In this document: in pieces, positions 5,987-45,657 of the stretch | Layout of the letters: each line of letters begins with the position of its first letter | Numbering within the stretch: position 1 is the first letter of the stretch | Origin: Bdellovibrionia bacterium | GTDB lineage: Bacteria > Bdellovibrionota > UBA1018 | Direction: 5' to 3' | Assembly: GCA_045805065.1 (NCBI GenBank) | Contig: JBJMMA010000040.1 | Span: 1 to 46,018 of the forward strand | DNA: 46,018 nt | Notes under the pieces: generated by a model | Databases searched by the model: none | Seen by the model: the letters and a program-made list of their open reading frames with translations, nothing else | Told to the model about the DNA's origin: nothing | Position numbers and translations under genes: made by a program

Positions 5987-6017
5987 ACTTCAAAAACCTC
6001 TCAGCGAACCTGATTAA

Positions 6018-6034
6018 GGCAAATTACGTACCCA
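6018..6034 (-). promoter_or_regulatory. putative sigma54 (-24/-12) promoter of PLD copy 1
   Basis: The minus strand reads GG-TACGTAATTT-GC (GG-N10-GC), about 30 bp upstream of the start. Confidence 0.55.
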
Positions 6035-6229
6035 ATTCCTCAATCAAATCAAATACACGTCAATTCTGCAGACCAGCCCCTGATTCATAGAAGATTCAAA
6101 CACTTGGACCCTGTCTGAATGAGAAGCCATCTTTCCTTCACAAAACCAACTGATCCGCTCCTGTCGAACTTTTAAACACCCGTCAATGATTTAGGCTTCA
6201 CAAGCAGGCTCGGAATTAGCCTGAATCCG

Positions 6230-8143
6230 CTAGTTAGCGAATGCGGCCTGGGGGATATGCTCATTGATAAAGGCCAGGATCGACATGAGCTTCTTTCTCA
6301 TCTTGAGCTCAGGCCTTGCGTTCATGATCGCAAGATCAGGATCTCCGTAGAGATAAGAGCGCGCCAGGGCCTTCTCAAACTCCTGGGTCAGATCCGCGCC
6401 GATCTTCGAGCTGTCCACAAAGAACACGGTCTCGGAGTTCAAACGACGGGAGCGTTGATCGAGGTTATGGCTTCCCACGAATGAGACTCGTCCATCGATG
6501 ATTCCATACTTGGAGTGAAGCTTTCCGTAAAAGTTCGCCGGCGCAACGAGTTGCCCGCGGCTGTCTCTCACCTCGCCTTTTGTGAACATCTTGTTATCGA
6601 GGCGGCCGAGTTGATAGACCTGAATTTTCTGATCGTGGTTATCAAATTCGCCTTCGGTCACTTCATGTGTGACAGGGTCCTCGCAGCGGTAGTGTCCTTC
6701 GCGCATGAACTCAGGGGCGCTTTCATGCTGAAACGTTGCCATCGCAAGCGCGCTGTCAGAAGTCGCGCTGGAGTTCGATAGAAGCCTGATTTTTCTTCCA
6801 GGCTTTTGCATGACCCATTTCTTGAGGCAATCGCGCTCATTCTGGGCGACAAAGACGTAAGGCGTGCATACATCAATCGATTTATCTGCCTTGGCCATGA
6901 GCCGAACGAGTTCAGAATAAATCGAATCGCCGTTCACGTATTTCTCAACAAACGGTGCGTTTGGATCCACGATCACATCCGAGATCGGGCGCTTGAGGTT
7001 TTGAATCTCATTGCCGTGCATGAGTTTTCCGCGCACCAGGCCGTCTTCCAAAAATGCAAAACCGCTGGAGCCTTTCATCTCACGATAAAGCTCGCGCAAG
7101 CCGCCCTCGTTCAAGAGGCGCTCAAAGCCACCTTCCATGCGAAGAAGCGCGTGGCGTGATGGTAGATCACCCAAGCTCTCAATCCGCTCCAGACCCAACC
7201 AACGATTACCCTTGGAGCAGAAGAGGTTCTGAAAATGTTTTCCAAGGGTATTGGTGATGTTTCTGGAATCCGTGGATCTTGGATCATTTGCGGTCAAAAT
7301 CTCCATATCCTCGTAAGTGTCTTGATCGACCTGCGGATAGCCGTAGTAAGCGTTATGAATGTTTCGTCCGCCCACGATCGCCATCGTGGCCTCTGGGATT
7401 TCCTTATCGATCATGAAAATTTTGTCGTGTGAGCGGCGATCCCAGTTAAGACCCGTCTCACTGGAAAGGTTCACATCATCGATGACCTTCTCTTTCATAT
7501 TGCTCAGGATCGTATTGAAGCGTCCGAGCGGATGAAAGATCACGATATCAAGTTGCCCTGGTTTCAGGCCGCTTTTCTCAGCCAGTTTTTTTGCCAGCAG
7601 CAGTGCGCGAGGCGCGCGGTATTGATCCTTGATCGCCTCACCCATGGATCCACCCGCATCGATCATAAAGCGCACGTTCACGCCACGGATCAGAGCCAGA
7701 CGAAGGCCATCCAAGATCGCGAGTGCGGATTCGTCGGCTTCGAAAATATAGGTTGAGATATCGATGCTTTTTTGAGCTTTTTCGATCAAAAGAAGTTTTG
7801 CGAGAAGCGCCTCATGGGGATCCGCAAGCACTTTGATTTTGCCAGGGAACCAGCCCGTAGGCTGCGCCTTGAAACCGCTGAGAGTATCCACGCTGATTGC
7901 TTCTGGGCCGCAGACTTCGATCTTGCGCTGTTTTTGCGCGGGCCGCATGAGCTCTTCTGCGCCATCGCGAGTGATGTCATCTCGGACTTTTGGTTCGAGT
8001 GGAACTTGGGGATTGGAGGCAAGGCTTCGCCAGAGGTTAGCTCCCGTTTTTAGAGGGGTGCCTTGAACCCAGCAAATCGCGGTAACCGCGGATACGCCCA
8101 ATGCGATCACGCCTGCGCCAATTCCCATAAAAGCTTTGTTCAT
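6230..8143 (-). CDS. phospholipase D family protein, tandem paralog
   Basis: RRSHDKIFMID...GGRNI and KLHSKYGIID...GSHNLDQRS. It is colinear with 4064..5986 over its whole length. Confidence 0.92.
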   Translation of the reverse strand: MNKAFMGIGAGVIALGVSAVTAICWVQGTPLKTGANLWRSLASNPQVPLEPKVRDDITRDGAEELMRPAQKQRKIEVCGPEAISVDTLSGFKAQPTGWFPGKIKVLADPHEALLAKLLLIEKAQKSIDISTYIFEADESALAILDGLRLALIRGVNVRFMIDAGGSMGEAIKDQYRAPRALLLAKKLAEKSGLKPGQLDIVIFHPLGRFNTILSNMKEKVIDDVNLSSETGLNWDRRSHDKIFMIDKEIPEATMAIVGGRNIHNAYYGYPQVDQDTYEDMEILTANDPRSTDSRNITNTLGKHFQNLFCSKGNRWLGLERIESLGDLPSRHALLRMEGGFERLLNEGGLRELYREMKGSSGFAFLEDGLVRGKLMHGNEIQNLKRPISDVIVDPNAPFVEKYVNGDSIYSELVRLMAKADKSIDVCTPYVFVAQNERDCLKKWVMQKPGRKIRLLSNSSATSDSALAMATFQHESAPEFMREGHYRCEDPVTHEVTEGEFDNHDQKIQVYQLGRLDNKMFTKGEVRDSRGQLVAPANFYGKLHSKYGIIDGRVSFVGSHNLDQRSRRLNSETVFFVDSSKIGADLTQEFEKALARSYLYGDPDLAIMNARPELKMRKKLMSILAFINEHIPQAAFAN

Positions 8144-17434: not shown

Positions 17435-18979
17435 TTAATTTGCGCTGCCAATGCCAAGATCATAGGCTTCCGCCTTGATCCAGCCGATCCACCATTTATC
17501 CGAGTTGTAGAGCTGGAAATTTGCCCGAGGAGGCATCCCGTTCAAGCCCTGGATCGGTTGGACGATGATCGGTGACAGCGATGGGTTCTGAAGATTGGTT
17601 CGCTGCAGGAAGCGCTGACAAACCGTCTGAAGCTGCGATTGCGTCGCACTGTCGAGATCCGAGAAGTTCTTGGCCAAGTACGCCGCGGCTTTGGATGGAT
17701 CGGCATCGTTTACGCCAGCAATGTAATTTGCCGCGTACATATCGAAACGCTGACCGGCTTCCGTCACGGCTCCGGCTGGCTTATGGCAGTCCAGGCAATC
17801 CACTGATCCGCGCACAATCGGTTTATAGACCTGATTGAGCCAGACGTTCGGCTCTTTGCAGTTTCCAAGGATCCCTGATTGCAGGTACCCGAAGGAGAAA
17901 GAGATCGTATCCGGATTGGACGTTGACGTTCTCTCCTGGAAAATATCCGCAGCGCTTGCCGCCGTGCTGAAAAGCGGAGCAACGGATGGAACGCAATAAC
18001 TCGTGGATGTGGCATCAATCGTATTGAAATCCACTGGCGTTGGAAAAGTCGGGATATTGCAGATCTTCTTGCCACTCGAGTCAGTCACGTTGAAGTTTGC
18101 CTTATCCACCACCATATCGATGTTGTGATAGGCCTGCCCATAATTGGCTCTATACTGACCGTTGATGTAAAGCCCGAGGTCATGGACGTAAACCGGGCCA
18201 TCAGGACTCATGATTCGCGGATTCTTGAGAACGTAGGCGGCAACGCCAAGATTGGAAGCGTAGTTCTCGTAAGCGAAATCAACTTCCAACCAGGCACGTT
18301 GGAGATTCGGGTTTTTCAGCGGATTCTGGCTATCAGGAGTGCCCGGAAGCACGGAAAACTTCGCAACCGGGTAGCGGAGCTTGCTCCAGCACTTGTTCGC
18401 GCAAAGCCTGTTGCCGTTGGCGTCCGTGCGCGCCACTTTGATATCCGGGCTACAGCTCAGATCCTCGGGAAGATGACATGCCGCTGGATTCGGCGATGGG
18501 ACGGGAATGGCGTGAGTATAGACGATCGCAGTCGAGGTCTGGCCTGGCAGGTTGCCTGATCCGCTCGAGCTGAATGAAGCTTTCCAATCCGTGATCAGCC
18601 CAGTCATTGTCTGAGCGTTCGAGGTGCCAGAGCATTGCGCGCCACAGTGACCATCGCTCACCTTATGCACAAACAATGAGGACGAAATATCCGAGAAGTT
18701 GACGAGCGGAAAATTCAACACGACCTCGAGTGCCGCGTTGACATCGTTTTGCGCGAATTTCGGGCTTTGGGTGGTCCCATGGCAGCTCCGGCAATTGTTC
18801 GTCACATAGGGATAGACCGTGCTTTTGAATCCAGCGAGGACGTCGGCCGAACCGGCCTGCAAATTGCCATTGGTCTGCGAGTTGAGGCTTTGAACGGGAG
18901 CGCCATCGCGCTTGCCCTCCAGGCATCCGGAGGCGAGAAGCGTAAGCGAAATCATTGTTACAGCTAAACGTGCAGTCAT
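17435..18979 (-). CDS. putative di-heme c-type cytochrome lipoprotein
   Basis: Lipobox LASGC; CxxCH motifs CRSCH and CLDCH; GGAG RBS before ATG 18979. Confidence 0.75.
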   Translation of the reverse strand: MTARLAVTMISLTLLASGCLEGKRDGAPVQSLNSQTNGNLQAGSADVLAGFKSTVYPYVTNNCRSCHGTTQSPKFAQNDVNAALEVVLNFPLVNFSDISSSLFVHKVSDGHCGAQCSGTSNAQTMTGLITDWKASFSSSGSGNLPGQTSTAIVYTHAIPVPSPNPAACHLPEDLSCSPDIKVARTDANGNRLCANKCWSKLRYPVAKFSVLPGTPDSQNPLKNPNLQRAWLEVDFAYENYASNLGVAAYVLKNPRIMSPDGPVYVHDLGLYINGQYRANYGQAYHNIDMVVDKANFNVTDSSGKKICNIPTFPTPVDFNTIDATSTSYCVPSVAPLFSTAASAADIFQERTSTSNPDTISFSFGYLQSGILGNCKEPNVWLNQVYKPIVRGSVDCLDCHKPAGAVTEAGQRFDMYAANYIAGVNDADPSKAAAYLAKNFSDLDSATQSQLQTVCQRFLQRTNLQNPSLSPIIVQPIQGLNGMPPRANFQLYNSDKWWIGWIKAEAYDLGIGSAN

Positions 18980-19007
18980 GGGGGTCTCCGTAGATCGGCC
19001 TTTTAGC

Positions 19008-20531
19008 TCAGCTCTTGAATGGGCCCAGCGCCACAAGCGAATCAATCATGCTTGCGGGTACCAGCGCGGACCCCAACGAGTTCGCCATAGGCCCGGTATA
19101 AAGATTGAGCGCATTATTGAGTGCGAGATAGTTCAGGACACAAGCCTGAGCCGCATTCTGCATATTGTAAGTCAGGCAGTTTGGATCCGTGGTCTCACCG
19201 CTCGTCAGATTGCCAACGTGCGTTTTGAGAACATCCACCGCCTTGGCGTGCGGATCAAACGCAGCCATCACCATGCCGCTATGGCCATTGTCATCACCGC
19301 GCCAGTTACGGGTCATTGGATCGGAATAGATCCCGCCGTCCGTGATGAGCTGTAGCGCGAATTTCTTGTTCTTCTTGCGCGCGAGCTGGAGCATGCGCTT
19401 CATGACCATGCCGATCTGCGCATCTTTCGCGTCGCCGGAGGTCTGCGTTCCATCGTGATAGTCGCAGCCCCCCACCGTGATGACGCCTGGGCCTGAGGTG
19501 CCTTCAAGAGCATTCTTGACGATCGTTGCTTCGAGCACCATGGGATCGTTCTCACCGGTCGCAGGGCTGATGCCGTAGATGGCCTGGCAATCAGCATCAA
19601 ATCGCGCGTCCATGCTTGCGGATGGATTAACGTAGTTTTTGTTGGCTTTGAATCCTGAATTGATGAGAGCGCTCATGGCATCGCCCTGATTCATCGCGCT
19701 CAGCATGCCAAGCTGCGTGTTGGAGAGATTGAGAAGTCCATCAGCCAGATCACTCACCACGGCCGTAGGCACGTTGGCAAGCGCGGGACCATAACTCAGT
19801 GCCTGAGTCAGCGTTCTCACCGAGGAAATCGCAACAGGCTTCGCTGCGGATGGAAGCAGAAGCCCTGCAGCCGATAGCGAGTTTCCGGCCGAAGGCGAAG
19901 CCACGGTCCCCAGACCGTTTGGAAGTCTGCTGCCAGAAGCACCGAAGTAAGATGCCAGGCCTGCGATCTGCACCTCATTGGACGAGCTATCGCTGAGTGT
20001 GTTGGCGTGAATCAGCGACATGCGAAATCCGGATTGCAGCGCATTGACAAATTCGGTGTCCGCGGCGTTTTGAGTCGCGGTAGCTGGATCCGCCTGATTG
20101 ACCGGCGTAATCTTCATCAGTGTTTCATAGACCTGACTTACGCCTTGGGCCATCGGAGCGCCCATGGAGGAGTCGACGCCTCCAACAAGCGTGGCAAGGC
20201 CTGTTCCAGGATAAGATGAAAGAGCCTTGAAGGAGCCCGAGACCTGAGAGCCCACCCAGTTCCCCAGCAATCCGAATCCGCCCGCGCAATCAATGATCAG
20301 AAGCGGGCAAAGTCCCGGCATGGCGCTGCCAGATGCGCCAGGAGCCGCATCACCCGCGCGCACCGCGCGTTCACGAAGGATCAGACTCACGATGGATGGA
20401 GCCATCACCATGCCGGAAAAACTGATCAGGCCGCTACTGATGAAGTCGCGACGGTTCATCAGTTTTTTCTCCGGATGGACCGGATTTGGATCGCCGATCT
20501 TGAAGATTCTCTGCTCGGTTTTCTTTTTCAT
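19008..20531 (-). CDS. Tat-exported protein, DUF1501-like
   Basis: Twin-arginine motif NRRDFI followed by a hydrophobic stretch; DCAGG, GGCDYHD and LITDGG motifs resemble DUF1501/DUF1552-type proteins. Confidence 0.7.
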   Translation of the reverse strand: MKKKTEQRIFKIGDPNPVHPEKKLMNRRDFISSGLISFSGMVMAPSIVSLILRERAVRAGDAAPGASGSAMPGLCPLLIIDCAGGFGLLGNWVGSQVSGSFKALSSYPGTGLATLVGGVDSSMGAPMAQGVSQVYETLMKITPVNQADPATATQNAADTEFVNALQSGFRMSLIHANTLSDSSSNEVQIAGLASYFGASGSRLPNGLGTVASPSAGNSLSAAGLLLPSAAKPVAISSVRTLTQALSYGPALANVPTAVVSDLADGLLNLSNTQLGMLSAMNQGDAMSALINSGFKANKNYVNPSASMDARFDADCQAIYGISPATGENDPMVLEATIVKNALEGTSGPGVITVGGCDYHDGTQTSGDAKDAQIGMVMKRMLQLARKKNKKFALQLITDGGIYSDPMTRNWRGDDNGHSGMVMAAFDPHAKAVDVLKTHVGNLTSGETTDPNCLTYNMQNAAQACVLNYLALNNALNLYTGPMANSLGSALVPASMIDSLVALGPFKS

Positions 20532-20543
20532 ATTCCCCTACCC

Positions 20544-21230
20544 TTAATTCAATAGAAAGGCTGAGCTGCTGAGCGCCATCGTGCATGGAACCATCAATAC
20601 CCCGATGGTTTTGTCCTGAGCGCTCGTGTTCATCGGAAAGTTCGACGAATCCTTGATGGCGTTGAGCAACGCGGTTGAAAAAGCGCTGAACTCGGCATCT
20701 GTTGCGGCCCGTTTCCAGAACTTTGCGGTGTATTGCTCAATGGCGGCCACCCCAGGATCAGGCGATCCACTGGCAGGCTTTCTCACGAGGGCCGTGCCAC
20801 CGCTGGAGGCCAGCGCCTGCGGACCTGCCGTGAAATTGATGCCGTTATCGGCCCAGCGCTTTCCATCGGCCAGAGCCGCATCGCTGGTGATCATCTCGCG
20901 GCACGCAACCGCCATGAATTGAGTGATCGCCATCAACATGGATGAATTCATCGACGTTGCGTTTCCATCTGACGACAGCCAGGGTGCAATCACCTCGTAG
21001 TTGGACATAAGCTTGGTGCTGAAAGGAACGTTGGTCACCGCGGCAACCGAGAGCCCGAGCTGCGAGACGGTCTTCAAGCCTGCCGTGCTGCCAGGCGCAT
21101 ACGCGGCTTGCAGTGCTGCGGTCGTCGGCGCCGAATTGAACGTCAGCACCGTTTTAGGCGACAGACTGAAGCAGGATGAAAGTCCCGTGCACAAAGCGAG
21201 AGCCATGCTGACTCGAATGAGATTTCTCAT
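20544..21230 (-). CDS. lipoprotein of unknown function (DUF1595/PSD-like helical C-terminus)
   Basis: Lipobox LSSC; KFWKRAATDAE...CTMALSSSAFL. ATGA overlap with the upstream gene. Confidence 0.7.
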   Translation of the reverse strand: MRNLIRVSMALALCTGLSSCFSLSPKTVLTFNSAPTTAALQAAYAPGSTAGLKTVSQLGLSVAAVTNVPFSTKLMSNYEVIAPWLSSDGNATSMNSSMLMAITQFMAVACREMITSDAALADGKRWADNGINFTAGPQALASSGGTALVRKPASGSPDPGVAAIEQYTAKFWKRAATDAEFSAFSTALLNAIKDSSNFPMNTSAQDKTIGVLMVPCTMALSSSAFLLN

Positions 21231-24040
21231 TTTCCACCCCCAGCGCCAGTTCCAAGGCAGCTCGAGAGAGATGCCGCCTTCTGGAACAAACGTCTCATAT
21301 TGTAATTCGTGCTCTGGAAGTAAGTGCTTAGGTCATTGATGACTCCGGCATCCGGTCCATTGAAGTGCACATCCACTTTGGCGGGAGTGCCCATCGTGCA
21401 GACTTGCTGGTACACGCGCTTTGCCATGCACTTGGCGAAGCCATCGGAGTTCGCGAGCATCATACCCAGTGCATGAACGCCGTTACCCTGGGTCGGAACT
21501 CCTGACGACCATCCAAAAACCGGCTGCCAATTGTTCGACGTCAGGAAGTTCATCCAGGAGTCGTCTCCGGTCACGTACCCTGGAGGAAAGACGCCATTGT
21601 TCTTGTTCATCTTGGGCATCGTGGCCTCTTCGCCATAACCACCGGCATTGACGTAGAACACGCGCCAATCGTTCAGATCACCAATCCCGTTGCCATTGTT
21701 AGGCTGACTTGGATTTGGGTAAGCGTCATAGAAGGCATAGGCTCCGCCCAACGAGTCCAGCGACGTGTGACATGAGCGGCAGCTTGAATGATAAATCTTG
21801 GGATCTCCGCCTGGAGCATGGTCGACGTCGCGACGAATGCGCCATTCAGTCAGGCTGGAGTCCTGGACGTCGGTGATGTCATGGCAGAGGAATCGATCCA
21901 TCATGAAGCGGATCGCGCGGCGGTTCGTTCCCATGTAGAGGCCCGAGACCCCCCACTGACGAGTCGTCAGAAGGCCCGCAGCGTCCGGATGAACGATCGG
22001 ATGGTCGGAATTGAAAGCCAGGTCCTTGGAATTGTTATACACGCACTGTGGAGCCGGCACGAGTTGCTTATCGAGTCCGTTATTGACCGGGTCGGCATAC
22101 ATCGCCACCATCGCATCTATATAAGGTTTGGTGCTCTTATAGACATCGGATGGAGCGCAGGAGCCGGAGGATGCAGGCTTGTAAGCCTTGGGAACATAGA
22201 TCTGGTTCCCGGTCAGAAGGAGCTGAGCGTTCAGATCATCGCGGACGATCCCGATCCAGGTCGCCGTGAAGTCATTGAGGTCAGTGAGCTTTCCGGTCGT
22301 ACCCAGCGGGTTTTTGCCGGCATCAGAAAGCGGCGTGATCATGTTCCAGAGAGTGGAATTGTAGAAGCCAGGCTCACGGGTTGCCAGATAGGCAGCCTGC
22401 ATGATGTCGCCGGACATGATCTTATCACTATAGAGCTTGAGCTGTGGATACTTTGGACCCGTGCCTGCGGGATCGACGTTCCAATCCGGAATCTGCTTGT
22501 TCTCGTCCATTGGCAAGCCTGCCAGGTGGAGATAGAGCCTGCGAGCAATGTCCTGCGCTTGACCCACTGAGGTTGGAGCCGCAACGAGGTCGCGTGCGAG
22601 AATCTTCACGCTGATCTTATCACTTAAGAGCGATCCACCTGAGATGCCGAGGCTGAGGTTTTCGGCTGCGGTGTCGCGGAAGTAGAAAGACGCTGTTTTC
22701 TGTCCCGCGGGGATCATGACATTTGAAATCACGCTCGTGCAGTTGGCGTCCGAATAAAGCGTAGTCGAGCCCGACTTTGAAATGTTCACCGTCAGATTGG
22801 ATGCAGGTGACGTATCGTTTCCGTTCTGGTCCTCCACTCCGATTGCGACCGGAGCCGAGCATTTTCCCTGGTCAACCGACGAAGGAGCGCTCTCGAACAC
22901 AAGCTGATTGGCTGTGCCGCCGTTGATGCTCTCCACTTGCACGGCCGAGACGATGAATCCATTGCCAGGGCTGTAAGACGTCGCCACCTGTTGCGCCGCC
23001 TGCGCTACAGTCGATTGAAGATAGAACTGAATGTAAGAATCGCTGATGGTTTCGTTCCAACGTCCCGTTGCAGGCTCGGACGCAGGATAGCTTTTGGCGA
23101 TCGACATCTTGGAAGTGTTGTAAAGACATTTTGGATCCAGGAATGCGGTCGCTGGCGAAAGGGTCATCGAAATCGTGACCTTATCCGAAGTGAAGAATCC
23201 CGAGTCGCCCTCAGAGAGCTTGATGGCCGTACCGTTTCCATCCACTAGATTAACCTTCATCGCGGATGAGCAAACCTCGGCCGTCGTGCTGATTGGCGAA
23301 GTCATGAATTTCAAACGTGGATAGTATTTGACGGTGCTGAAAATGCCGAAGCTCTTTTTGACTCCAGAAGAAGGAGCAACGACTTCGAATGCATAGGTGA
23401 AGCTGAGCTGGCCCGGATAGGTTGTTTCAGCGTAGAAGTTTTCGTAGTGACCGGACCCTTGGGCGATATTGAGCACGACGTATCGAACACCGTTAGCTGC
23501 CCAGCCTGCAGGAGATTTGTCGGCTGCGGCCAATTGAGACTGAATCGCGGCGTTAGCGGATGCCGGCAATGAGGTGTAAACCTGAGGATTCAGGCCACCA
23601 GAACGGGGATTCATATTATCCGTAGGCTTGATGTAAAATTTTGCGCTATTGAGCGTGTTCGCATTCGATGCCTTGACCATGATGATCGCAACACGATTGG
23701 TATCTGCGCCAACATCAGAATTCGTTGGCGACCAGGTATAGCTTGGGCAAGGCGTAGGCGAACCGGCTGGCACAGGAGGAGGAGGTACCAGGCGACGAAC
23801 GTACAATATCTGCTGGGGTCTGACGTCCTGAACATTGTTCTTGATCGCGGAGTAGCCCTCGCTTCCGCCCACCAGCTGCATATTGTCGACATTTCCAGCA
23901 GCAAACGTAGGCTGCGGCGTAGGCATGGTTGCAGGTGGAAGAACGACTTCGCCCGTAGGGCAAGATGGATCGGCGCTCCAGGCGCTACAAGCGAGCAGAA
24001 CCCCACAAAAGGCCAACCATTTGACTTGCAGATTGAGCAT
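21227..24040 (-). CDS. large secreted protein with beta-rich N-terminus and C-terminal CxxCH (DUF1588/DUF1585-like) region
   Basis: Signal peptide; ARRLYLHLAG, AAGLLTT, TNRR, RIRRDVDHAPGGD, CRSCH..LD, FAKCMAKRVY and YNMRRLF. Confidence 0.75.
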   Translation of the reverse strand: MLNLQVKWLAFCGVLLACSAWSADPSCPTGEVVLPPATMPTPQPTFAAGNVDNMQLVGGSEGYSAIKNNVQDVRPQQILYVRRLVPPPPVPAGSPTPCPSYTWSPTNSDVGADTNRVAIIMVKASNANTLNSAKFYIKPTDNMNPRSGGLNPQVYTSLPASANAAIQSQLAAADKSPAGWAANGVRYVVLNIAQGSGHYENFYAETTYPGQLSFTYAFEVVAPSSGVKKSFGIFSTVKYYPRLKFMTSPISTTAEVCSSAMKVNLVDGNGTAIKLSEGDSGFFTSDKVTISMTLSPATAFLDPKCLYNTSKMSIAKSYPASEPATGRWNETISDSYIQFYLQSTVAQAAQQVATSYSPGNGFIVSAVQVESINGGTANQLVFESAPSSVDQGKCSAPVAIGVEDQNGNDTSPASNLTVNISKSGSTTLYSDANCTSVISNVMIPAGQKTASFYFRDTAAENLSLGISGGSLLSDKISVKILARDLVAAPTSVGQAQDIARRLYLHLAGLPMDENKQIPDWNVDPAGTGPKYPQLKLYSDKIMSGDIMQAAYLATREPGFYNSTLWNMITPLSDAGKNPLGTTGKLTDLNDFTATWIGIVRDDLNAQLLLTGNQIYVPKAYKPASSGSCAPSDVYKSTKPYIDAMVAMYADPVNNGLDKQLVPAPQCVYNNSKDLAFNSDHPIVHPDAAGLLTTRQWGVSGLYMGTNRRAIRFMMDRFLCHDITDVQDSSLTEWRIRRDVDHAPGGDPKIYHSSCRSCHTSLDSLGGAYAFYDAYPNPSQPNNGNGIGDLNDWRVFYVNAGGYGEEATMPKMNKNNGVFPPGYVTGDDSWMNFLTSNNWQPVFGWSSGVPTQGNGVHALGMMLANSDGFAKCMAKRVYQQVCTMGTPAKVDVHFNGPDAGVINDLSTYFQSTNYNMRRLFQKAASLSSCLGTGAGGGK

Positions 24041-24159
24041 GGACTGTTCCCCTCGCCTCCATCCTGGAGACACCCCATTTCTCTGAGAGAGACTTACTCA
24101 GATATGAATAAGCTTAAGACATCTGCTTAAGCCGCAAAATGTGTGGTGTGGGACACATC

Positions 24160-37942: not shown

Positions 37943-37979
37943 GCTCCCCGCCGGAATGCTCCTTGCTCAAGCGAGGGAC

Positions 37980-40304
37980 ATGACACCAGCGGCAGCTCGT
38001 CTTCTTCGATATGCTCTCTTTGGCGCAATCACCCTTGCGATTGTTGCAACGCCTGGCTGCAACTCGCAAAACGATCGCACGAGCGAGCGACAGTCCGGTC
38101 AAGGGTCGAACTCCTGCCAGCTCGTTGAATCAGGAAGCGGTCCGACGGGCACTGACCCCGTTCATCTGGAAACCGTGGCGAACGGACTCGATACGCCCTG
38201 GGCTCTTGCCTTTTTGCCAGGTGGCGACATTCTGGTTACGGAGCGCCCCGGGCGCCTTCGCTTGATTCAAAATGGCGCGCTCCTCCCCGATTCGGTTCTT
38301 GAAGTGAGCGTCGCTCAAAGTGGCGAGGGTGGACTCCTGGGTCTTGCGTTGCATCCGGACTTTGCGAGCAATTCGTTTTTCTATCTTTATGAAACCGCTT
38401 TGAACGGAAACGGTTCAGTGAACCGCGTGGTTCGCTACAAGCTTTCTTCCGATCACCGAAGTGCGACGCTTGATCGAATCATTCTCGACAATATCCAGGC
38501 TGGAAGCGTTCACAATGGCGGAAAAATTCATTTCGGTCCCGATGGAATGCTCTACATCGCGACTGGAAACGCCGGAAACACGGATCTTTCTCAGGATCCA
38601 AATTCCTTGAACGGAAAACTTCTGCGCCTCACTCCCGACGGTCAGATCCCGGGCGATAATCCCCAACCCGGAAAAGCCTGGTACCTCAACGGCATTAGAA
38701 ACTCAGAAGGTTTTGACTGGATCAACCCATCGACTCTGGTTGTTGCCGATCATGGCCCTACAGGCGAGTACCAGGGTCGCTTGGGTGGTGATGAAGTCAG
38801 TATCGCCCGCGCTGGCGACAACCTGGGCTGGCCAACGATCTGGCACTGCGAGACGCAAGCAGGCCTTGTGACTCCTGTTCTGAGCTGGAACAACGCTGTT
38901 CCTCCAGGAGGCCTGGCCATTTATCGAGGAAATCAAATTCCAGGATGGAATGGAAACGTCATTCTTGGAACCTTGGGCTCTGAGCATCTTCACCGAATCA
39001 TCCTCGATGAGAATCGGAACGTCTCTCGGCATGAAGTTTACTTTGAGGGACAAATGGGAAGAATTCGCGAAGTCATCAATGGCCCGAACGGTGAGCTTTA
39101 TATTACGACCAGTAATTGCGATGGCCGTGGCGATTGTCCAAGCTCAGGAGACGCACTTTTAAGAATAGTGGCCGGAGCAAGTGCAGGTAGCCGTGGAACC
39201 GCGTCTGACTCCTCCCCTATCTTTGTTCAAGGAACTTTGAGCTATGGATCGGGCGCTCGAACTCATCAGAAGGATGTCGCGCTTCAATTCACTGTTTCAG
39301 GGATGCATCTTTTTGATAGCCCGGAGAACTCCTGCCCGGGCGATCCGCATATGCAGGGAGCGAGCTCCACATCTTCCACCACTGGAAACCAGGGAGAGTT
39401 TGCAGCTGAGATTTTACTGAACGAGATCACATCTCGAGTGAATGCAAGCTGCACACTTCAGAAGAATCTATCAGATCTGGATTCTCTGACGGTCGAGGCT
39501 TCCATGGATACCGATACCGAGAGCTGCACCCAGTTCTGCCAAGGCACTTTCAATGCAACAGGCGCATCCTGTGAGTCCCAATGCCTCACGGGCCAGAGAA
39601 AGCTCAGAGCGTCCAAGGTTTTTGCTCACGCTGACCTGCTTCAGCTCAGTGCTGCAAGCACCGGTCAAAATGCGACCATTCTGAATGTGCCTTTGACTTT
39701 GAATCAGCTGGGCCCCCCGCTCTCCACTCTTCATGGACCTGATCTTGTAGTGGATGGAAACGCCGCTCAAGCTACCGCACAAGTCAGCGTTGAGAATTTC
39801 GCTGCGGATGATTGCGCCGTTGTCGAAGGCTGTGTCGTTGGCCCGGGTCAGCACAAGCTTCTTCGCTTTGATGGCGTGATTCAAAACCTGGGTGACGCGG
39901 ACTTTGTCTTGGGAAGCCCCGACAATAATCCACTCTTTACCTACAGCTCGTGTCACCAGCACTATCACTTAGGTGAGATCATGCTCTACGAACTTTTGGA
40001 TCCAGTCACCAAAAAGCCCGTGATGGTCAATGGCGCTGCCGTTGTTGGCCGCAAACAAGGCTTTTGCATGATTGATAATGATCAGATCGCAGGCAGTTCC
40101 GAGGGTAAGTACGATTGTGATCTTCAAGGGGTTACGCCGGGCTGGTCGGATAATTATGATCACACCTTGGATTGCCAGTGGCTGGATGTCACGGGCGTTC
40201 CTCCAGGCAACTACACGCTTCGGATCACCGTGAATCCAATTGGCAAATATACTGAATCAAACACCTCCAATAATACCTCTGAAGTACCGGTGGCCATTCA
40301 GTAA
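37980..40304 (+). CDS. lipoprotein: PQQ-dependent sugar dehydrogenase beta-propeller fused to a lysyl oxidase domain
   Basis: Lipobox-like TPGC. GSDH motifs: PWALAFLP, TERPGRL, GEGGLLG..HPDF, HNGG.I.FGPDG, GIRN and GRIR. LOX motifs: PDLV, LLRF, CHQHYH, KQGFCMID, DNY...DCQWLDVT and ESNTSNN. Confidence 0.88.
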   Translation: MTPAAARLLRYALFGAITLAIVATPGCNSQNDRTSERQSGQGSNSCQLVESGSGPTGTDPVHLETVANGLDTPWALAFLPGGDILVTERPGRLRLIQNGALLPDSVLEVSVAQSGEGGLLGLALHPDFASNSFFYLYETALNGNGSVNRVVRYKLSSDHRSATLDRIILDNIQAGSVHNGGKIHFGPDGMLYIATGNAGNTDLSQDPNSLNGKLLRLTPDGQIPGDNPQPGKAWYLNGIRNSEGFDWINPSTLVVADHGPTGEYQGRLGGDEVSIARAGDNLGWPTIWHCETQAGLVTPVLSWNNAVPPGGLAIYRGNQIPGWNGNVILGTLGSEHLHRIILDENRNVSRHEVYFEGQMGRIREVINGPNGELYITTSNCDGRGDCPSSGDALLRIVAGASAGSRGTASDSSPIFVQGTLSYGSGARTHQKDVALQFTVSGMHLFDSPENSCPGDPHMQGASSTSSTTGNQGEFAAEILLNEITSRVNASCTLQKNLSDLDSLTVEASMDTDTESCTQFCQGTFNATGASCESQCLTGQRKLRASKVFAHADLLQLSAASTGQNATILNVPLTLNQLGPPLSTLHGPDLVVDGNAAQATAQVSVENFAADDCAVVEGCVVGPGQHKLLRFDGVIQNLGDADFVLGSPDNNPLFTYSSCHQHYHLGEIMLYELLDPVTKKPVMVNGAAVVGRKQGFCMIDNDQIAGSSEGKYDCDLQGVTPGWSDNYDHTLDCQWLDVTGVPPGNYTLRITVNPIGKYTESNTSNNTSEVPVAIQ

Positions 40305-40404: not shown

Positions 40405-41274
40405 ATGAAAAGAGCTTTAGGAATCATTTGCGTTCTGCTCGCCAGCGCGAGCTCGGTTTGGGCTGCGACTGAGACGCAGGCTACGGCAACACCAACCAGC
40501 GCCACGGGACAAAACAGCGCCAATGAGCGTTCCGGCTTTGCGCTGCTCAAAGAAAAAGTCGGCGTGAGCTACTACGGAATCTACTACGGTCCTCCCGCAT
40601 CAGATCCTGGCTCAAGCAAGCAGATCAATGAATGGGGCAAGCCCACCTCGAATCAGTATTTCCTGAACTACCTGGGACTCAGCTACAAGGTCAGTAAAAC
40701 CCTTCTTCCGGGCATCACCGTGATGTCCACTTACACTCCCGTTCGCGGCCAGGACATGACCTTGCTCGATCCTTATCTCCGTCTGACTGACACCAAGCTG
40801 ATCAGCTCAGGGAACTGGAACCTCTACAGTGAGCTTCGCCACTTTCTTCCAGTGACGAAAGCTTCTCACAACGCTCACAAGATGAGCACGTTTGGAACCT
40901 TTCAGTGGCTGACCTACAACGTTCCCAACACACGTCTTTCGGTTGGTGCATGGGCCAAGTTCTATTGGACGGTATTCGGCTCGGGCGCCCTTCCAGGTGC
41001 AGGCGATGATTATCAAGCCTTTTTCCGCCCTCAGATGTTCTACACTCTGACACCGACCGTGGCTGCCTCGCTCTACTATGAAATGACCGGCAATCACACG
41101 CTCGGAAAGTCCGCTTCCGACTGGCATACGGGCTACACCAACTTACAGCTGGGAGCGATGTGGACTGTCGTTCAGGGCGTGACTCTGAATCCGTATCTGC
41201 TTTTCAATACGGGCGGAAAAGTCACGACCGATACGACCGCCCTTGGCGCTCAGATTTTTGCGACCATCCTCTAA
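40405..41274 (+). CDS. putative outer-membrane beta-barrel protein
   Basis: Signal peptide ending SVWA; Tyr/Gly/Thr-rich amphipathic strands and a hydrophobic terminal strand. Confidence 0.7.
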   Translation: MKRALGIICVLLASASSVWAATETQATATPTSATGQNSANERSGFALLKEKVGVSYYGIYYGPPASDPGSSKQINEWGKPTSNQYFLNYLGLSYKVSKTLLPGITVMSTYTPVRGQDMTLLDPYLRLTDTKLISSGNWNLYSELRHFLPVTKASHNAHKMSTFGTFQWLTYNVPNTRLSVGAWAKFYWTVFGSGALPGAGDDYQAFFRPQMFYTLTPTVAASLYYEMTGNHTLGKSASDWHTGYTNLQLGAMWTVVQGVTLNPYLLFNTGGKVTTDTTALGAQIFATIL

Positions 41275-42267: not shown

Positions 42268-42339
42268 GTATCTCGTAGACAGATCATCTCGGCGTAGGGC
42301 ATAAATTTGGCTACAAGGATGATCACTAAGGAGACTCTC

Positions 42340-42879
42340 ATGAATTCTTTCATGCGTCTTACCATGCTCGGATGGCTTTTAACTGTGCCTGCGCTTGCGT
42401 TCTCAAGCGATGCAGTGCCGCCTTGCATGGCGAAGGGTCAACCGATCCCGATCAATAATGCACAAGCCTTGAAGTGGAAGACGTCGACTGCAAATCAGTT
42501 CACGTCTCGTTCGCACCTCATGGGTCGTGTGGCTCGAGTCTACCCGAATCAATCTGACCATAATCATTTCTCGCTTCAGGTCGGACCAGGTCCTCGCGAT
42601 ACGATCGAAGTCATCTACAATATCGAATTTGGCCAACTTCCTCAGATAGCGATTGGAATGCAAGTGGAAGCCTGCGGCGATTTCATCAACTCATTTGCTC
42701 AGGCAGGCCCTTATCCTCCGTCTCCGGATGGAGCGATCATTCACTGGGTTCATTACAATCCCAACGGCAAGGGCCATGACTCAGGATTTCTGGTGATCGA
42801 TGGCATGCTCTACGGCTACCCTCATCAGTATCAGTTTCACAATCCGTATCAGTCCCCGTATCCGTACTACGGTCGCTAA
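42340..42879 (+). CDS. DUF3465-like secreted protein
   Basis: AAGGAG RBS and signal peptide; H..F.L, YNI, GAIIHWVH...HDSGFL.IDG..Y. Confidence 0.75.
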   Translation: MNSFMRLTMLGWLLTVPALAFSSDAVPPCMAKGQPIPINNAQALKWKTSTANQFTSRSHLMGRVARVYPNQSDHNHFSLQVGPGPRDTIEVIYNIEFGQLPQIAIGMQVEACGDFINSFAQAGPYPPSPDGAIIHWVHYNPNGKGHDSGFLVIDGMLYGYPHQYQFHNPYQSPYPYYGR

Positions 42880-42892
42880 GTCAAAGCGCCGT

Positions 42893-43825
42893 TTAAAAAG
42901 TCAGCTCGGCAAGCACGCCGTAATGATCCGATAAGTTCGGCTCATCACACACGCGCTTGAGTCCCACTTTCTTGAGCGGCACCTTGGCTTGGACATAGAT
43001 GCGATCAAAAATGTGAGGGGCGTCTTCCCAGCCTCGGCACTCGTCCTGGCGCTCAGTGGCCAGGCGAGCTGAGATTTCAGTGGCCGGGTTATTTTGCGGA
43101 TCCCAGGTGATCTTCTGCTGGGTTGCGCTGAGTTGAGCACAATCAATCAATCCGATCTCCCAGAGTGGCTCCATAGACGACGAATCTGCCTCACAATTGA
43201 AGTCGCCGCAAACAGCCAGGAGATCGACATCCTTTGAACGACGTTTGAGAGAGCGAGCCAGGCGCACAAGCTCTTCACGCCTTCTCGTGCGGTGATGATG
43301 ACTTACCTCGGTTCCATTGTGCAGGTGAAGATTAACGACCGCGATTTTGCGACTTTTCCACACTGTCTCAAGCAACAAAGCGCAACGCCGCTCTCCCAAC
43401 TGCATGAACAAGGGCACCCCAAAGGGCGTGTCCCATTCATAGGCTTTTCCCGAGAGGGTGATCCGTACGGTTTTTCGCTTTCGAAACGCCTTTCCGGTTA
43501 AGGTCAGAAGCCCGTCAGAAAGATGAAGTGGAAGTCCCATACTTCCCCATTTGATCCCAGCATTGCATCGCATGGCCGCGTCACGCATCGACAGTTCCTG
43601 CGCAACCAGCGAGCGGCGTTTCTCGATCGGGTTGATCTCTTGGAGACAGAAAATATCTGATTCTGATTTTCTGAGGCGAGTCAAAGTCTCCATCTGCCGA
43701 ATCCGTCTGAGCTGCGCTTCTTTTGAGGATTCGAGCTGAGGCATTAAGAGAGGGCCAAAAACCCCGTATCCATAAGGACTCAAAGCATGCCAGACGTTCC
43801 AAGTGCAGATTCGAAGTACATTCAT
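42893..43825 (-). CDS. endonuclease/exonuclease/phosphatase family protein
   Basis: TWNV, DIFCLQE, NLHL, CGDFN, FDRIY and SDHYGV. Confidence 0.88.
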   Translation of the reverse strand: MNVLRICTWNVWHALSPYGYGVFGPLLMPQLESSKEAQLRRIRQMETLTRLRKSESDIFCLQEINPIEKRRSLVAQELSMRDAAMRCNAGIKWGSMGLPLHLSDGLLTLTGKAFRKRKTVRITLSGKAYEWDTPFGVPLFMQLGERRCALLLETVWKSRKIAVVNLHLHNGTEVSHHHRTRRREELVRLARSLKRRSKDVDLLAVCGDFNCEADSSSMEPLWEIGLIDCAQLSATQQKITWDPQNNPATEISARLATERQDECRGWEDAPHIFDRIYVQAKVPLKKVGLKRVCDEPNLSDHYGVLAELTF

Positions 43826-43912
43826 CGGCGCCGATCTTATCACACTATCCATGCGTCAAGTTGCCGCACCTCCCCTCGCAGCCTGCGGCAGGTCAACGCT
43901 ATATTTTGGCCC

Positions 43913-44422
43913 ATGCAGATCCATCTGAGAGATTTTCGAGCCGTCGGGGCGCTGGCGTTAATTCATGTCTTTTTTATCTCGCATGCGATTGCAAGCCTGG
44001 GAGGCTCGATCGACTCCATCGAATCGGATCGAAAAGCGTTCGAGGGAAAACTCAGGTCCCTGACCACGACCGATTCTCAGAAAAAATATACGGTCCACGA
44101 GATCAGCCGCGACGGAACACAGATTTTTGAATACGCGCTGCCGAATGGAACTGTTTTTGCGGTGAGTTGGCGAGGTCCCACGCAGCCGGATCTGACTGTG
44201 CTCCTGGGAGACTACTACCAGGAGTATCAAGATAAATTATCCTCGCTCAATCGCGCATCTTCTGACGGACGCACGGCTCAGCGTAGAGGAAGATCCGCGC
44301 GGGTGATTCGCTCCAAGAACATGGTGATTGAACGCTCCGGTCATATGCGCGACATCCGGGGAAAAGCGTATCTGCCGAAGCTGATGCCAAAAGATGTCAA
44401 GCCTGAGGATCTTCATTCATGA
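43913..44422 (+). CDS. DUF2844 family secreted protein
   Basis: Signal peptide then LGG; EY...G.VFAVSWRGP.QPDL..LLG.Y and GHMR...GKAYLP. Confidence 0.85.
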   Translation: MQIHLRDFRAVGALALIHVFFISHAIASLGGSIDSIESDRKAFEGKLRSLTTTDSQKKYTVHEISRDGTQIFEYALPNGTVFAVSWRGPTQPDLTVLLGDYYQEYQDKLSSLNRASSDGRTAQRRGRSARVIRSKNMVIERSGHMRDIRGKAYLPKLMPKDVKPEDLHS

Positions 44423-45657
44423 AATCTCTCCCTGTGAAATCTTCTCTCAGCGTGCTTCTCATTTCTACTGCTCTTGGCCTCACATCTTGTGGCTCGGCCA
44501 ATAACGAAGAAAATCCGCCCAATCTTGCAGCTCCCACCACAGCTCTTCCTTACCTGAGGGCAGCAGGAAACAATGTCTTGCCGATTCAGATCGGTGGATC
44601 TTCCATCTGCGGACAAGGCGGATATCTGAATGAGCCTTGCACCACGGTCACTATTTGTGTGCCGGGCACCAATCAATGTCAGACGGTCTCGGACATCCTG
44701 GTGGATACCGGAAGTGTGGGGCTTCGCGTCTTCTCAAGCGCACTTAGTTTCACGCTCCCGAATCAGACCGATTCATCAGGAAAAACGACTGCTGAGTGCG
44801 CGCAGTTTGGCATTGGAAGCGATTGGGGGCCACTGGCCTCAGCCGATGTCATCTTAGGTGGAGAGCCCCGAGTGAATGTCCCGATTCAAGTCATCAACAA
44901 GGGATTTGCTCCACCTCCTACCGAATGCGTGGCAGCGGATACCGATCCTGCCAGCGCAGGGTTCAATGGCATTCTTGGAGTTGGCCCGTTTAACGAAGAT
45001 TGCGGAAGCTCGTGCGCCGCAAGCTCGGCCCTTCATGCATTCTTCAATTGCCCTGCCTCGGGCGATTGCACTGCCGTGGCCCTTCCCAACTCCGCCCAGC
45101 CTCAAAACATCGTTTCAAAGCTTCCGGTGGATAATAACGGCGTTCTTCTGGCGCTGGACCAGTTGGGAATCGGCGGAAGCTCTCAAGTGGGAGGAGCGCT
45201 GATTCTGGGGATTGGAACATCGACCAACAATGTGCCAAGCGGGGTCAATGCCTACGGCCTCGATGAGCAAGGCAATTTCACGACTTTGTTCCAAGGGCAG
45301 AGCATCCCCGGATCATTCATTGATAGTGGCTCAAACGGGCTGTATTTCCCGAACATCGCGAACCTTCCCATCTGTTCGGATGACACGCATGCCCCTGGAT
45401 TTTATTGTCCCTCATCCACCCAGGTCTTGAACGCAAGCAATCTTTCGGAGAGCAACGGTTCGAGCGCCGCTGTCGATTTTGCCATTGGAAACGCTGACGG
45501 TCTTGCGCAGGGATCAGGAACCGCCTTTGTCGAACTCGGCGGTCCTGCCTCAGACACCTTTGATTGGGGGTTACCGTTCTTTTATGGACGCGCGGTTTTT
45601 CTGGGGATTGAAGGAAAATCCTCAACCCTTGGATCCGATCGCTACATCGCCTATTAA
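44419..45657 (+). CDS. DUF3443 family lipoprotein (pepsin-like aspartic protease fold)
   Basis: Lipobox LTSC; ILVDTGSVGLR, NGILGVG, FIDSGSNG and FDWGLPFFYGR. ATGA overlap with the DUF2844 gene. Confidence 0.88.
   Translation: MKSLPVKSSLSVLLISTALGLTSCGSANNEENPPNLAAPTTALPYLRAAGNNVLPIQIGGSSICGQGGYLNEPCTTVTICVPGTNQCQTVSDILVDTGSVGLRVFSSALSFTLPNQTDSSGKTTAECAQFGIGSDWGPLASADVILGGEPRVNVPIQVINKGFAPPPTECVAADTDPASAGFNGILGVGPFNEDCGSSCAASSALHAFFNCPASGDCTAVALPNSAQPQNIVSKLPVDNNGVLLALDQLGIGGSSQVGGALILGIGTSTNNVPSGVNAYGLDEQGNFTTLFQGQSIPGSFIDSGSNGLYFPNIANLPICSDDTHAPGFYCPSSTQVLNASNLSESNGSSAAVDFAIGNADGLAQGSGTAFVELGGPASDTFDWGLPFFYGRAVFLGIEGKSSTLGSDRYIAY

Follow-up and report, generated by a model that had tools for sequence, protein, structure and literature searches.

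Contig JBJMMA010000040.1 of a Bdellovibrionia bacterium (assembly GCA_045805065.1), whose forward strand we analysed over 46,018 nucleotides (hereafter the window), carries a gene that joins a propeller of the glucose/sorbosone dehydrogenase (GSDH) family to a lysyl oxidase (LOX) module within one polypeptide (Table 1). An earlier note on this DNA, made by a model from the letters and their open reading frames (ORFs), had placed both domains in one lipoprotein ORF, and translation and Pfam searches confirmed this: a single ORF of 782 aa (37956..40304, +) runs without internal stops to the stop codon at 40302-40304, and the junction of the two parts is seen in five other copies. Residues are numbered here from 37956. 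The ATG at 37980 is the likely start codon, because the homolog P0002 (86% identical) begins with MTP... at this position and the ESM Atlas record begins at residue 9. The leader is basic, then hydrophobic, and ends in IVATPGC35NSQ, a lipobox-like but non-canonical motif; homolog P0004 carries a canonical lipobox, AVSGC, at the position of ATPGC35. As read from this leader, the fusion protein is probably exported and lipid-anchored. Lipobox-like motifs, as captured by a loose regular expression rather than a trained predictor, also occur in 25 of the 34 aligned LOX modules and in 50 of the 61 aligned GSDH domains.

Table 1. Features of the fusion gene and of the genes downstream of it in the window.
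Feature	Residues	Coordinates	Strand	Basis and remarks
GSDH-LOX fusion lipoprotein gene		37980..40304	+	774 aa from ATG; ORF list, translation, Pfam
Signal peptide with lipobox-like end (LAIVATPGC35)		37980..38060	+	read from sequence; P0004 shows AVSGC there
Six-bladed GSDH/Asd-type (PQQ-type) propeller	78-391	38187..39128	+	Pfam, solved structures, invariant residues
Gly/Ser/Ala-rich linker joining both enzyme parts	~402-415	39159..39200	+	pLDDT <50 in model; variable in homologs
N-domain of LOX module (beta-sandwich and helical hairpin, six Cys)	~420-590	39213..39725	+	alignments A2/A3, model
Lysyl oxidase catalytic domain (six Cys)	596-776	39741..40283	+	Pfam, LOXL2 alignment, model
Secreted 290-aa protein, no Pfam family		40405..41274	+	directly downstream of fusion; 69% identical to L002:1874-2875
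Secreted His-/Cys-containing DUF3465-like protein		42307..42879	+	Pfam E 4.7e-4, under cut-off; 2 kb downstream of fusion

The source genome (G000) is a metagenome-type assembly of 262 contigs, 94% complete and with one LOX gene, and a chimeric contig or a frameshift might have fused two separate genes; this is exceedingly improbable, given that the frame is open, that GC content is even along the gene and that colinear full-length homologs come from other samples. Specifically, four proteins (P0002-P0005, 67-90% identity) from other metagenomes share the fusion over its full length, and another assembly (L002) holds a copy that is 78% identical, has the same domain order and is truncated by the contig end. 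These five independent colinear copies rule out misassembly of the GSDH-LOX junction. The linker between the two parts differs in length and sequence among P0001-P0005, and the close homologs are named "glucose/arabinose dehydrogenase" or "hypothetical protein" in databases.

The propeller matched the Pfam family GSDH (PF07995) almost over the whole profile (residues 78-391, profile positions 1-329 of 332; E 2.6e-77, 260.8 bits versus a cut-off of 25). In phmmer searches it aligned end to end with aldose sugar dehydrogenases (Asd-type) of solved structure that use pyrroloquinoline quinone (PQQ), namely 2G8S from E. coli (YliI-type), 3A9G from Pyrobaculum, 2ISM from Thermus, 3DAS from Streptomyces, and 7CDY (E 7e-67 to 4e-38). 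Residues H186, R248, N249, R369 and R371 are invariant in all 61 aligned relatives and recur in the aligned solved structures, so that the family match and the His, Arg-Asn and Arg-x-Arg positions characteristic of Asd-type enzymes bear out the GSDH/Asd-type propeller of the earlier note. Catalytic and cofactor roles were assigned by motif and by analogy to soluble glucose dehydrogenase (sGDH), for which passages of PMC6881789 give a catalytic His144, an Arg and an Asn at the quinone oxygens and an Arg at the carboxylates; accordingly H186 is the putative catalytic His, and R248/N249 and R369/R371 are putative PQQ contacts. The score against TIGR03606, the model of the sGDH-B subfamily (non_repeat_PQQ), was 101.8 bits and did not reach the cut-off of 434.55, which places the propeller, by sequence, with the Asd/YliI type and not with the type of Acinetobacter sGDH or sGDH-B. 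It differs from the Asd/YliI-type enzymes by the fused LOX module and by the additional conserved cysteines C54 and C388/C394.

The C-terminal part matched Lysyl_oxidase (PF01186) over residues 596-776 (E 1.9e-29, profile positions 2-189 of 204), with 103.2 bits versus a cut-off of 20.4, and human LOXL2 (5ZE3) was the only significant match of the C-terminal 207 residues among PDB sequences. In the phmmer alignment with LOXL2 (E 6.4e-24) the motifs CHQHYH, GRKQGFC and GWSDNY face HRHYH, GHKASFC and GCWDMY, which predicts H667, H669 and H671 as copper ligands and K700 and Y734 as precursors of the lysyl-tyrosylquinone (LTQ) cofactor; we take the aligned Lys and Tyr of LOXL2 to be its LTQ-forming residues. 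In alignment A3 all 34 modules share K700 and Y734, and at least 90% of them have the three His. The HxHxH copper motif of LOX is described as a 'copper talon' in passages of PMC4448552. The DCQW...VNP...SNN motifs are common to both proteins as well, and all motifs that the earlier note had quoted for an intact, animal-like LOX domain are present in the translation. Unlike LOXL2, the window protein is a bacterial lipoprotein, has neither scavenger receptor cysteine-rich (SRCR) domains nor a propeptide, and carries instead an N-domain of its own and the GSDH propeller. Moreover, its positions opposite the LOXL2 segments 'TECEGD' and 'GCWDMY' hold no cysteine; the LOXL2 cysteines there presumably pair as a disulfide, and one disulfide of the animal enzyme thus appears to be missing from the window LOX.

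An AlphaFold2 (AF2) model of residues 400-782, built from the 34-row alignment A3, reached a mean pLDDT of 91.2 and a pTM of 0.88, with residues 402-415 alone disordered. Its catalytic half had LOXL2 5ZE3 as top match both in Foldseek (E 2.3e-14) and in VIA-align (Z 21.3, root-mean-square deviation 2.2 Å over 181 residues, 33% identity; next entry Z 8.2), so that the profile score and a confident structural model agree on a LOX fold. The region between linker and catalytic domain had no Pfam match at E<=10. In alignments A2 and A3 it corresponds to the first ~190 aa of LOX lipoproteins (350-450 aa), whether stand-alone or paired with GSDH, and its fold, modelled jointly with LOX, resembles generic beta-sandwich (Ig/macroglobulin-like) structures with Z values of ~6-6.6, ESM Atlas scores below 0.8 and TM scores below 0.5. 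Because this N-domain recurs in stand-alone LOX proteins and the two parts were modelled together with confidence, the LOX unit is, as far as alignments and model tell, a two-domain module (N-domain and catalytic domain) behind a flexible linker. The Cys-rich middle domain of the earlier note therefore exists as a region but does not constitute an insert of its own; it belongs to the LOX module, whose N-terminal half it forms.

Models of the two enzyme parts together were set aside. A full-length AF2 model from an alignment of six close fusions (A6) had a mean pLDDT of 48.1 and a pTM of 0.34 and was discarded as meaningless, and a mixed 84-row alignment (A5) was discarded for full-length modelling since its GSDH-only rows were aligned onto the LOX half. 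Prediction of a complex between the GSDH part (A4) and the LOX module (A3, residues 20-383) scored 0.00 twice with unfolded controls, and is uninformative on contact between the parts.

The link between the two enzymes extends well beyond the fusion gene itself. A PF01186 search of 401 genomes of the phylum detected LOX in 8, 5 of which belong to the window's family (58 genomes), and a later search added a sixth LOX-bearing genome of the family (G412). All six join LOX to an orthologous GSDH that is 50-80% identical to the window propeller, in three layouts: a GSDH-then-LOX fusion (G000 and G263), a LOX-then-GSDH fusion of 787 aa (G251), and LOX followed by GSDH as adjacent same-strand genes with overlapping ends (G317, G141 and G412). 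G226, G309 and G074, which belong to other families of the phylum, have LOX without an adjoining GSDH. We also recovered 80 metagenome loci with the LOX-module alignment and sought GSDH in them with a custom hidden Markov model (HMM). An overlapping GSDH gene lies directly downstream of LOX in L018, L019 (coordinates and scores identical to L018) and L020, L024 has a convergent GSDH gene, and a very divergent one lies 1.1 kb downstream in L052; none was found in the other 75 loci. When all loci selected for comparison were searched against each other, LOX and GSDH were the only genes common to all of them, and the loci fall into the same groups by LOX as by GSDH similarity (L011/L018/L020, for example). 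This GSDH lineage and LOX thus make up a conserved two-part module, present as a fusion in one order or the other or as overlapping neighbour genes. In the window protein each part keeps all positions that define its family. On the basis that relatives keep both enzymes reverse-fused or as neighbouring genes, the two very probably work together, and the functional coupling supposed by the earlier note is strongly backed by comparative genomics.

More distant proteins combine the same families. Among the 120 matches listed, at least 16 carry both PF01186 and PF07995; four of them (P0002-P0005) have the GSDH-then-LOX order, and all nine others scanned for Pfam coordinates, which lie within P0057-P0081, have LOX before GSDH. 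The LOX domains of these nine score 30-59 bits and keep HxHxH and the tyrosine motif; with 103 bits the window LOX is closer to the animal-based Pfam profile. The window protein thus differs from the distant fusions by its reverse order, by its more animal-like LOX clade and by its own N-domain, and its GSDH domain also branches apart from theirs. From 108 GSDH domains, cropped to their HMM envelopes, we computed a quick maximum-likelihood tree, with SH-aLRT as the only support measure and midpoint rooting for drawing. LOX-linked propellers occupy at least four places in this tree, of which 63 rows are of unknown gene context. The window's clade is sister to the split pairs L011/L018/L020 (SH-aLRT 93); G317, G251 and G412 form one group in which the reverse fusion of G251 is nested among split pairs; and the distant fusions fall into two separate groups. 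From these placements, and because both fusion orders occur within one family, we conclude that LOX and GSDH sequences were joined more than once, in at least two events.

Two other arrangements of bacterial LOX were seen in passing. Many bacterial LOX proteins of 500-870 aa (among them P0093, P0105, P0110, P0165 and P0171) have tandem double LOX domains, some with CARDB-like matches. In G226 (L012:3240-7427) a 602-aa LOX without GSDH adjoins a 765-aa protein with ATP-grasp and Orn/DAP/Arg decarboxylase domains, which may be another amine-related context for bacterial LOX.

As to what the two enzymes do together, we favour, at about even confidence, a bifunctional exported oxidoreductase in which LOX and propeller would carry out successive oxidations, from amine to aldehyde and from aldehyde to acid, lactone or lactam. 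Both would act on a shared extracytoplasmic substrate, in the periplasm or at the membrane surface, in consecutive steps; a common compartment is suggested by the lipobox-like leaders (by the crude motif above) of most stand-alone members of both families. The LOX module would be a copper amine oxidase that builds its own LTQ from K700 and Y734 and converts a primary amine R-CH2-NH2 to an aldehyde, with release of NH3 and H2O2. The propeller, a dehydrogenase presumed to use PQQ and Ca2+, would then act on this aldehyde in hydrated form or as a hemiacetal or hemiaminal, turn it into an acid, lactone or lactam, and thereby clear a reactive product. Candidate substrates are lysine side chains, polyamines, amino-lipids and cell-wall fragments. 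Sorbosone dehydrogenase, which figures in the name of the propeller family, carries out an aldehyde-to-acid reaction. The family is reported to oxidise the hemiacetal C1-OH of aldoses (passages of PMC6881789). For the first step the one characterised prokaryotic LOX is HTU-LOX, a PF01186 member with a hydrophobic N-terminus that excerpts of PMC6452851 present as a Cu-dependent amine oxidase, sensitive to beta-aminopropionitrile (BAPN) and of relaxed specificity, with lysine polymers, small amines, aminoglycosides and polymyxin as substrates. HTU-LOX is described there as a LOX protein that lacks a partner dehydrogenase, and what it does natively is termed cryptic. For the envelope cross-linking or attack on prey that the earlier note had suggested, the present data offer neither support nor exclusion.

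Several observations weigh against such an amine-to-acid sequence. First, Asd-type enzymes are, to our knowledge, known for aldoses and not for lysine-derived aldehydes. Second, the association is far from general. Exhaustive HMMER searches returned 4455 representative proteins that match the LOX part at E<=0.001; the custom HMM, which recognised 8 of 8 known fusions as a control, detected GSDH in one of the 150 best LOX representatives, this one (P0003) belonging to the window's own cluster, and Pfam found it in none of the 76 LOX relatives ranked 2-77. A word-based search with the LOX part likewise listed 30 proteins of 430-1369 aa with GSDH in four close relatives only, and the GSDH-LOX fusion is rare among LOX proteins. 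In the metagenomes, no GSDH was found in 75 of the 80 loci, which are mostly catalytic-domain-only relatives and many of which are short contigs. Where LOX matched over the whole module (eight loci), three are paired and four have less than 1 kb downstream, and L025, with a full-module LOX and 4 kb on each side, has no GSDH. Third, four family genomes in which LOX was not found (G287, G368, G205 and G145; completeness 77-92%) have GSDH orthologs of 50-59% identity: within the window's family it is LOX that depends on GSDH rather than the other way round.

Fourth, the cofactor of the second step may have to come from elsewhere. PqqC was found neither in G000 nor, above cut-off, in 201 genomes of the phylum, by a search run without a positive control, and PqqE gave weak radical-SAM matches at most. 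As no PQQ synthesis genes were seen in a 94%-complete genome, the PQQ for the propeller is probably scavenged from outside, and the presence of two quinone cofactors, as the earlier note had it, is not backed by the genome. E. coli likewise lacks PQQ synthesis of its own and imports PQQ for YliI and Gcd, as parts of bioRxiv 10.1101/2022.06.07.495086 and PMC13088180 report. Fifth, in a GSDH-paired LOX subclade (G141/L011 (5628-6914), L018 (3851-5086), L020 (801-2057) and P0124) the segment SSCHQHYHL is replaced by SSCHNV[KEQ]LL, so that two of the three copper His are gone; P0170, separate from this subclade, has a different replacement at the copper site. This subclade, placed by the GSDH tree as sister to the window's clade, retains the Lys and Tyr motifs of LTQ, all Cys and a GSDH partner with intact catalytic positions. 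Since it lost two copper His yet kept its GSDH partner, the pairing persists where copper amine oxidase activity, to go by these replacements, is doubtful.

A chemically looser association is another option. The two enzymes might be co-localised and act independently on different groups of one polymer or envelope structure, with the propeller working, for example, at the reducing ends of glycans and LOX at amines of peptides or lipids in the cell wall or outer membrane of the bacterium itself or of its prey, in which case the join would serve co-expression and co-anchoring. The flexible, low-confidence linker between the parts, the long repeat inserts in P0058, P0059, P0060, P0068 and P0070 and the lipoprotein-like nature of both partners are as this arrangement predicts. 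On the other hand, recurrent fusion in both orders and overlapping genes are more typical of consecutive steps or of physical partners, the window's fusion gene has no cell-wall genes beside it, and besides the generic beta-sandwich of the N-domain there is no recognisable substrate-binding module. We regard independent action as rather unlikely.

Alternatively, the LOX could be the oxidase of the propeller: reduced PQQ would pass its electrons to the Cu/quinone centre of LOX, which would reduce O2 to H2O2 as a built-in terminal oxidase and so take the place of the cytochrome c domains of other GSDH proteins. We know of no physiological acceptor for Asd-type enzymes, which leaves room for such a partner, and at least 21 GSDH relatives among the 120 matches listed carry cytochrome c domains (PF13442 or PF00034). 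Furthermore, the AA12 propeller of a fungal enzyme, the Coprinopsis cinerea pyranose dehydrogenase AA8-AA12-CBM1, has a cytochrome b domain fused to it (passages of PMC6881789), and like these and the bacterial GSDH-cytochrome c proteins the window protein combines a propeller with a second redox domain. The asymmetry within the family also fits, in that LOX never occurs without GSDH (6/6) and GSDH occurs without LOX. The partner in the window protein is a copper/quinone amine oxidase and not a haem carrier. Against this function, no LOX is known to serve in electron transfer, the Lys and Tyr of LTQ and the motifs on the substrate side are conserved throughout (34/34), as expected of an amine oxidase, and the copper-less subclade would have lost the electron-acceptor function too. 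We consider this electron-sink function unlikely, and in its specific form, a self-contained two-quinone oxidase in which electrons from a sugar or aldehyde would run through the propeller to the Cu/LTQ centre and yield H2O2 at the cell surface, quite doubtful. If true, LOX domains would have a second role as terminal electron acceptors, and in a predator the H2O2 could be a peroxide weapon or serve envelope chemistry.

It is very unlikely, finally, that the LOX module is mainly a non-catalytic partner of the dehydrogenase, with a binding, regulatory or maturation role and with catalytic residues as an ancestral leftover. The sister split-pair clade, which lost two Cu ligands and otherwise stayed conserved and paired, would suit such a role; by contrast, the window protein and its five closest relatives (67-90% identity) keep the three His, the Lys, the Tyr and the six LOX-domain Cys, and the LOX partners in G317, G251 and G412 keep HxHxH.

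The link between LOX and propeller bears on two enzyme families at once. The function of bacterial and archaeal LOX is called enigmatic or cryptic in passages of PMC4448552 and PMC6452851, and it is likewise unclear which substrates and electron acceptors Asd/YliI-type PQQ dehydrogenases use physiologically; for YliI, the assay contained 1.25 M glucose (excerpts of PMC13088180). The recurrent LOX-GSDH link is a clue to bacterial LOX function, allows both questions to be addressed with a single recombinant protein, and raises the question whether LOX-made aldehydes are the real substrates of the propeller or LOX is the oxidase of the propeller. If confirmed, the fusion would represent a periplasmic route of a new kind, from amine to acid (or that of a sugar oxidase), and a compact bifunctional biocatalyst, and it would be an example from nature of a single polypeptide with two different quinone cofactors.

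No published description of a LOX-GSDH combination was found in a search that lay outside subscription journals and the InterPro architecture tables. In the literature searched, 'lysyl oxidase' was not mentioned jointly with 'sorbosone dehydrogenase', nor 'Lysyl_oxidase' with 'GSDH'; lysyl oxidase and PQQ-dependent enzymes were found together only in a PQQ review on neuroprotection, and the literature searched on predatory bacteria held no mention of lysyl oxidase. An evolutionary survey of LOX (Grau-Bove 2015) calls prokaryotic LOX architectures simple "except three"; neither GSDH nor dehydrogenase is mentioned in its main text or in three supplements. The earlier note knew of no description of this architecture, in keeping with these searches. 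The protein is not a one-off, the LOX-GSDH link recurring in several lineages. The parts themselves are ordinary members of PF01186 and PF07995, and the novelty lies in their combination. New are the GSDH-then-LOX order, the distinct and more animal-like LOX clade with its own N-domain, the occurrence of all three layouts inside one bacterial family, and the sister clade without a copper site.

We also inspected the surroundings of the fusion gene. The homolog of the 290-aa protein in the other assembly (L002:1874-2875) likewise directly follows a fusion gene, a synteny that holds in both genomes of the genus, and no homolog was found beside the LOX-GSDH pair in other loci. Homologs of the DUF3465-like protein (41-46% identity) lie directly upstream of LOX in L018 (3279-3818) and L020 (207-725), and the longest contigs of the homologs P0298 and P0300 have the same size as those of the fusion homologs P0002 and P0005. 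This protein is possibly a third associated gene of the module, for which a metal-handling role would be a guess; its link to the fusion may also be incidental, as the family is widespread in Bdellovibrionota and, with 309 matches, far commoner than LOX. A link of the fusion to the neighbouring B12-radical-SAM gene, to a quinone oxidoreductase or to other window genes was rejected, as none of these recurs beside the pair elsewhere. Promoter and terminator scans around the fusion gene gave fewer sites than in shuffled sequences and are hence uninformative.

Away from the fusion, the window holds a CDP-alcohol phosphatidyltransferase gene and a myo-inositol-1-phosphate synthase gene side by side (98-2434, -), followed by two tandem paralogous 640-aa PLD-like proteins (4064-8143, -); the phosphatidyltransferase/synthase pair is suggestive of inositol phospholipid synthesis. 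At 17435-24073 (-), four large ORFs in a row (536, 507, 228 and 948 aa) have no Pfam match at E<=1e-4. Near the end of the window, at 43787-45657 (+), lies a DUF2844-DUF3443 gene pair of unknown function, both members of which are strong Pfam matches.

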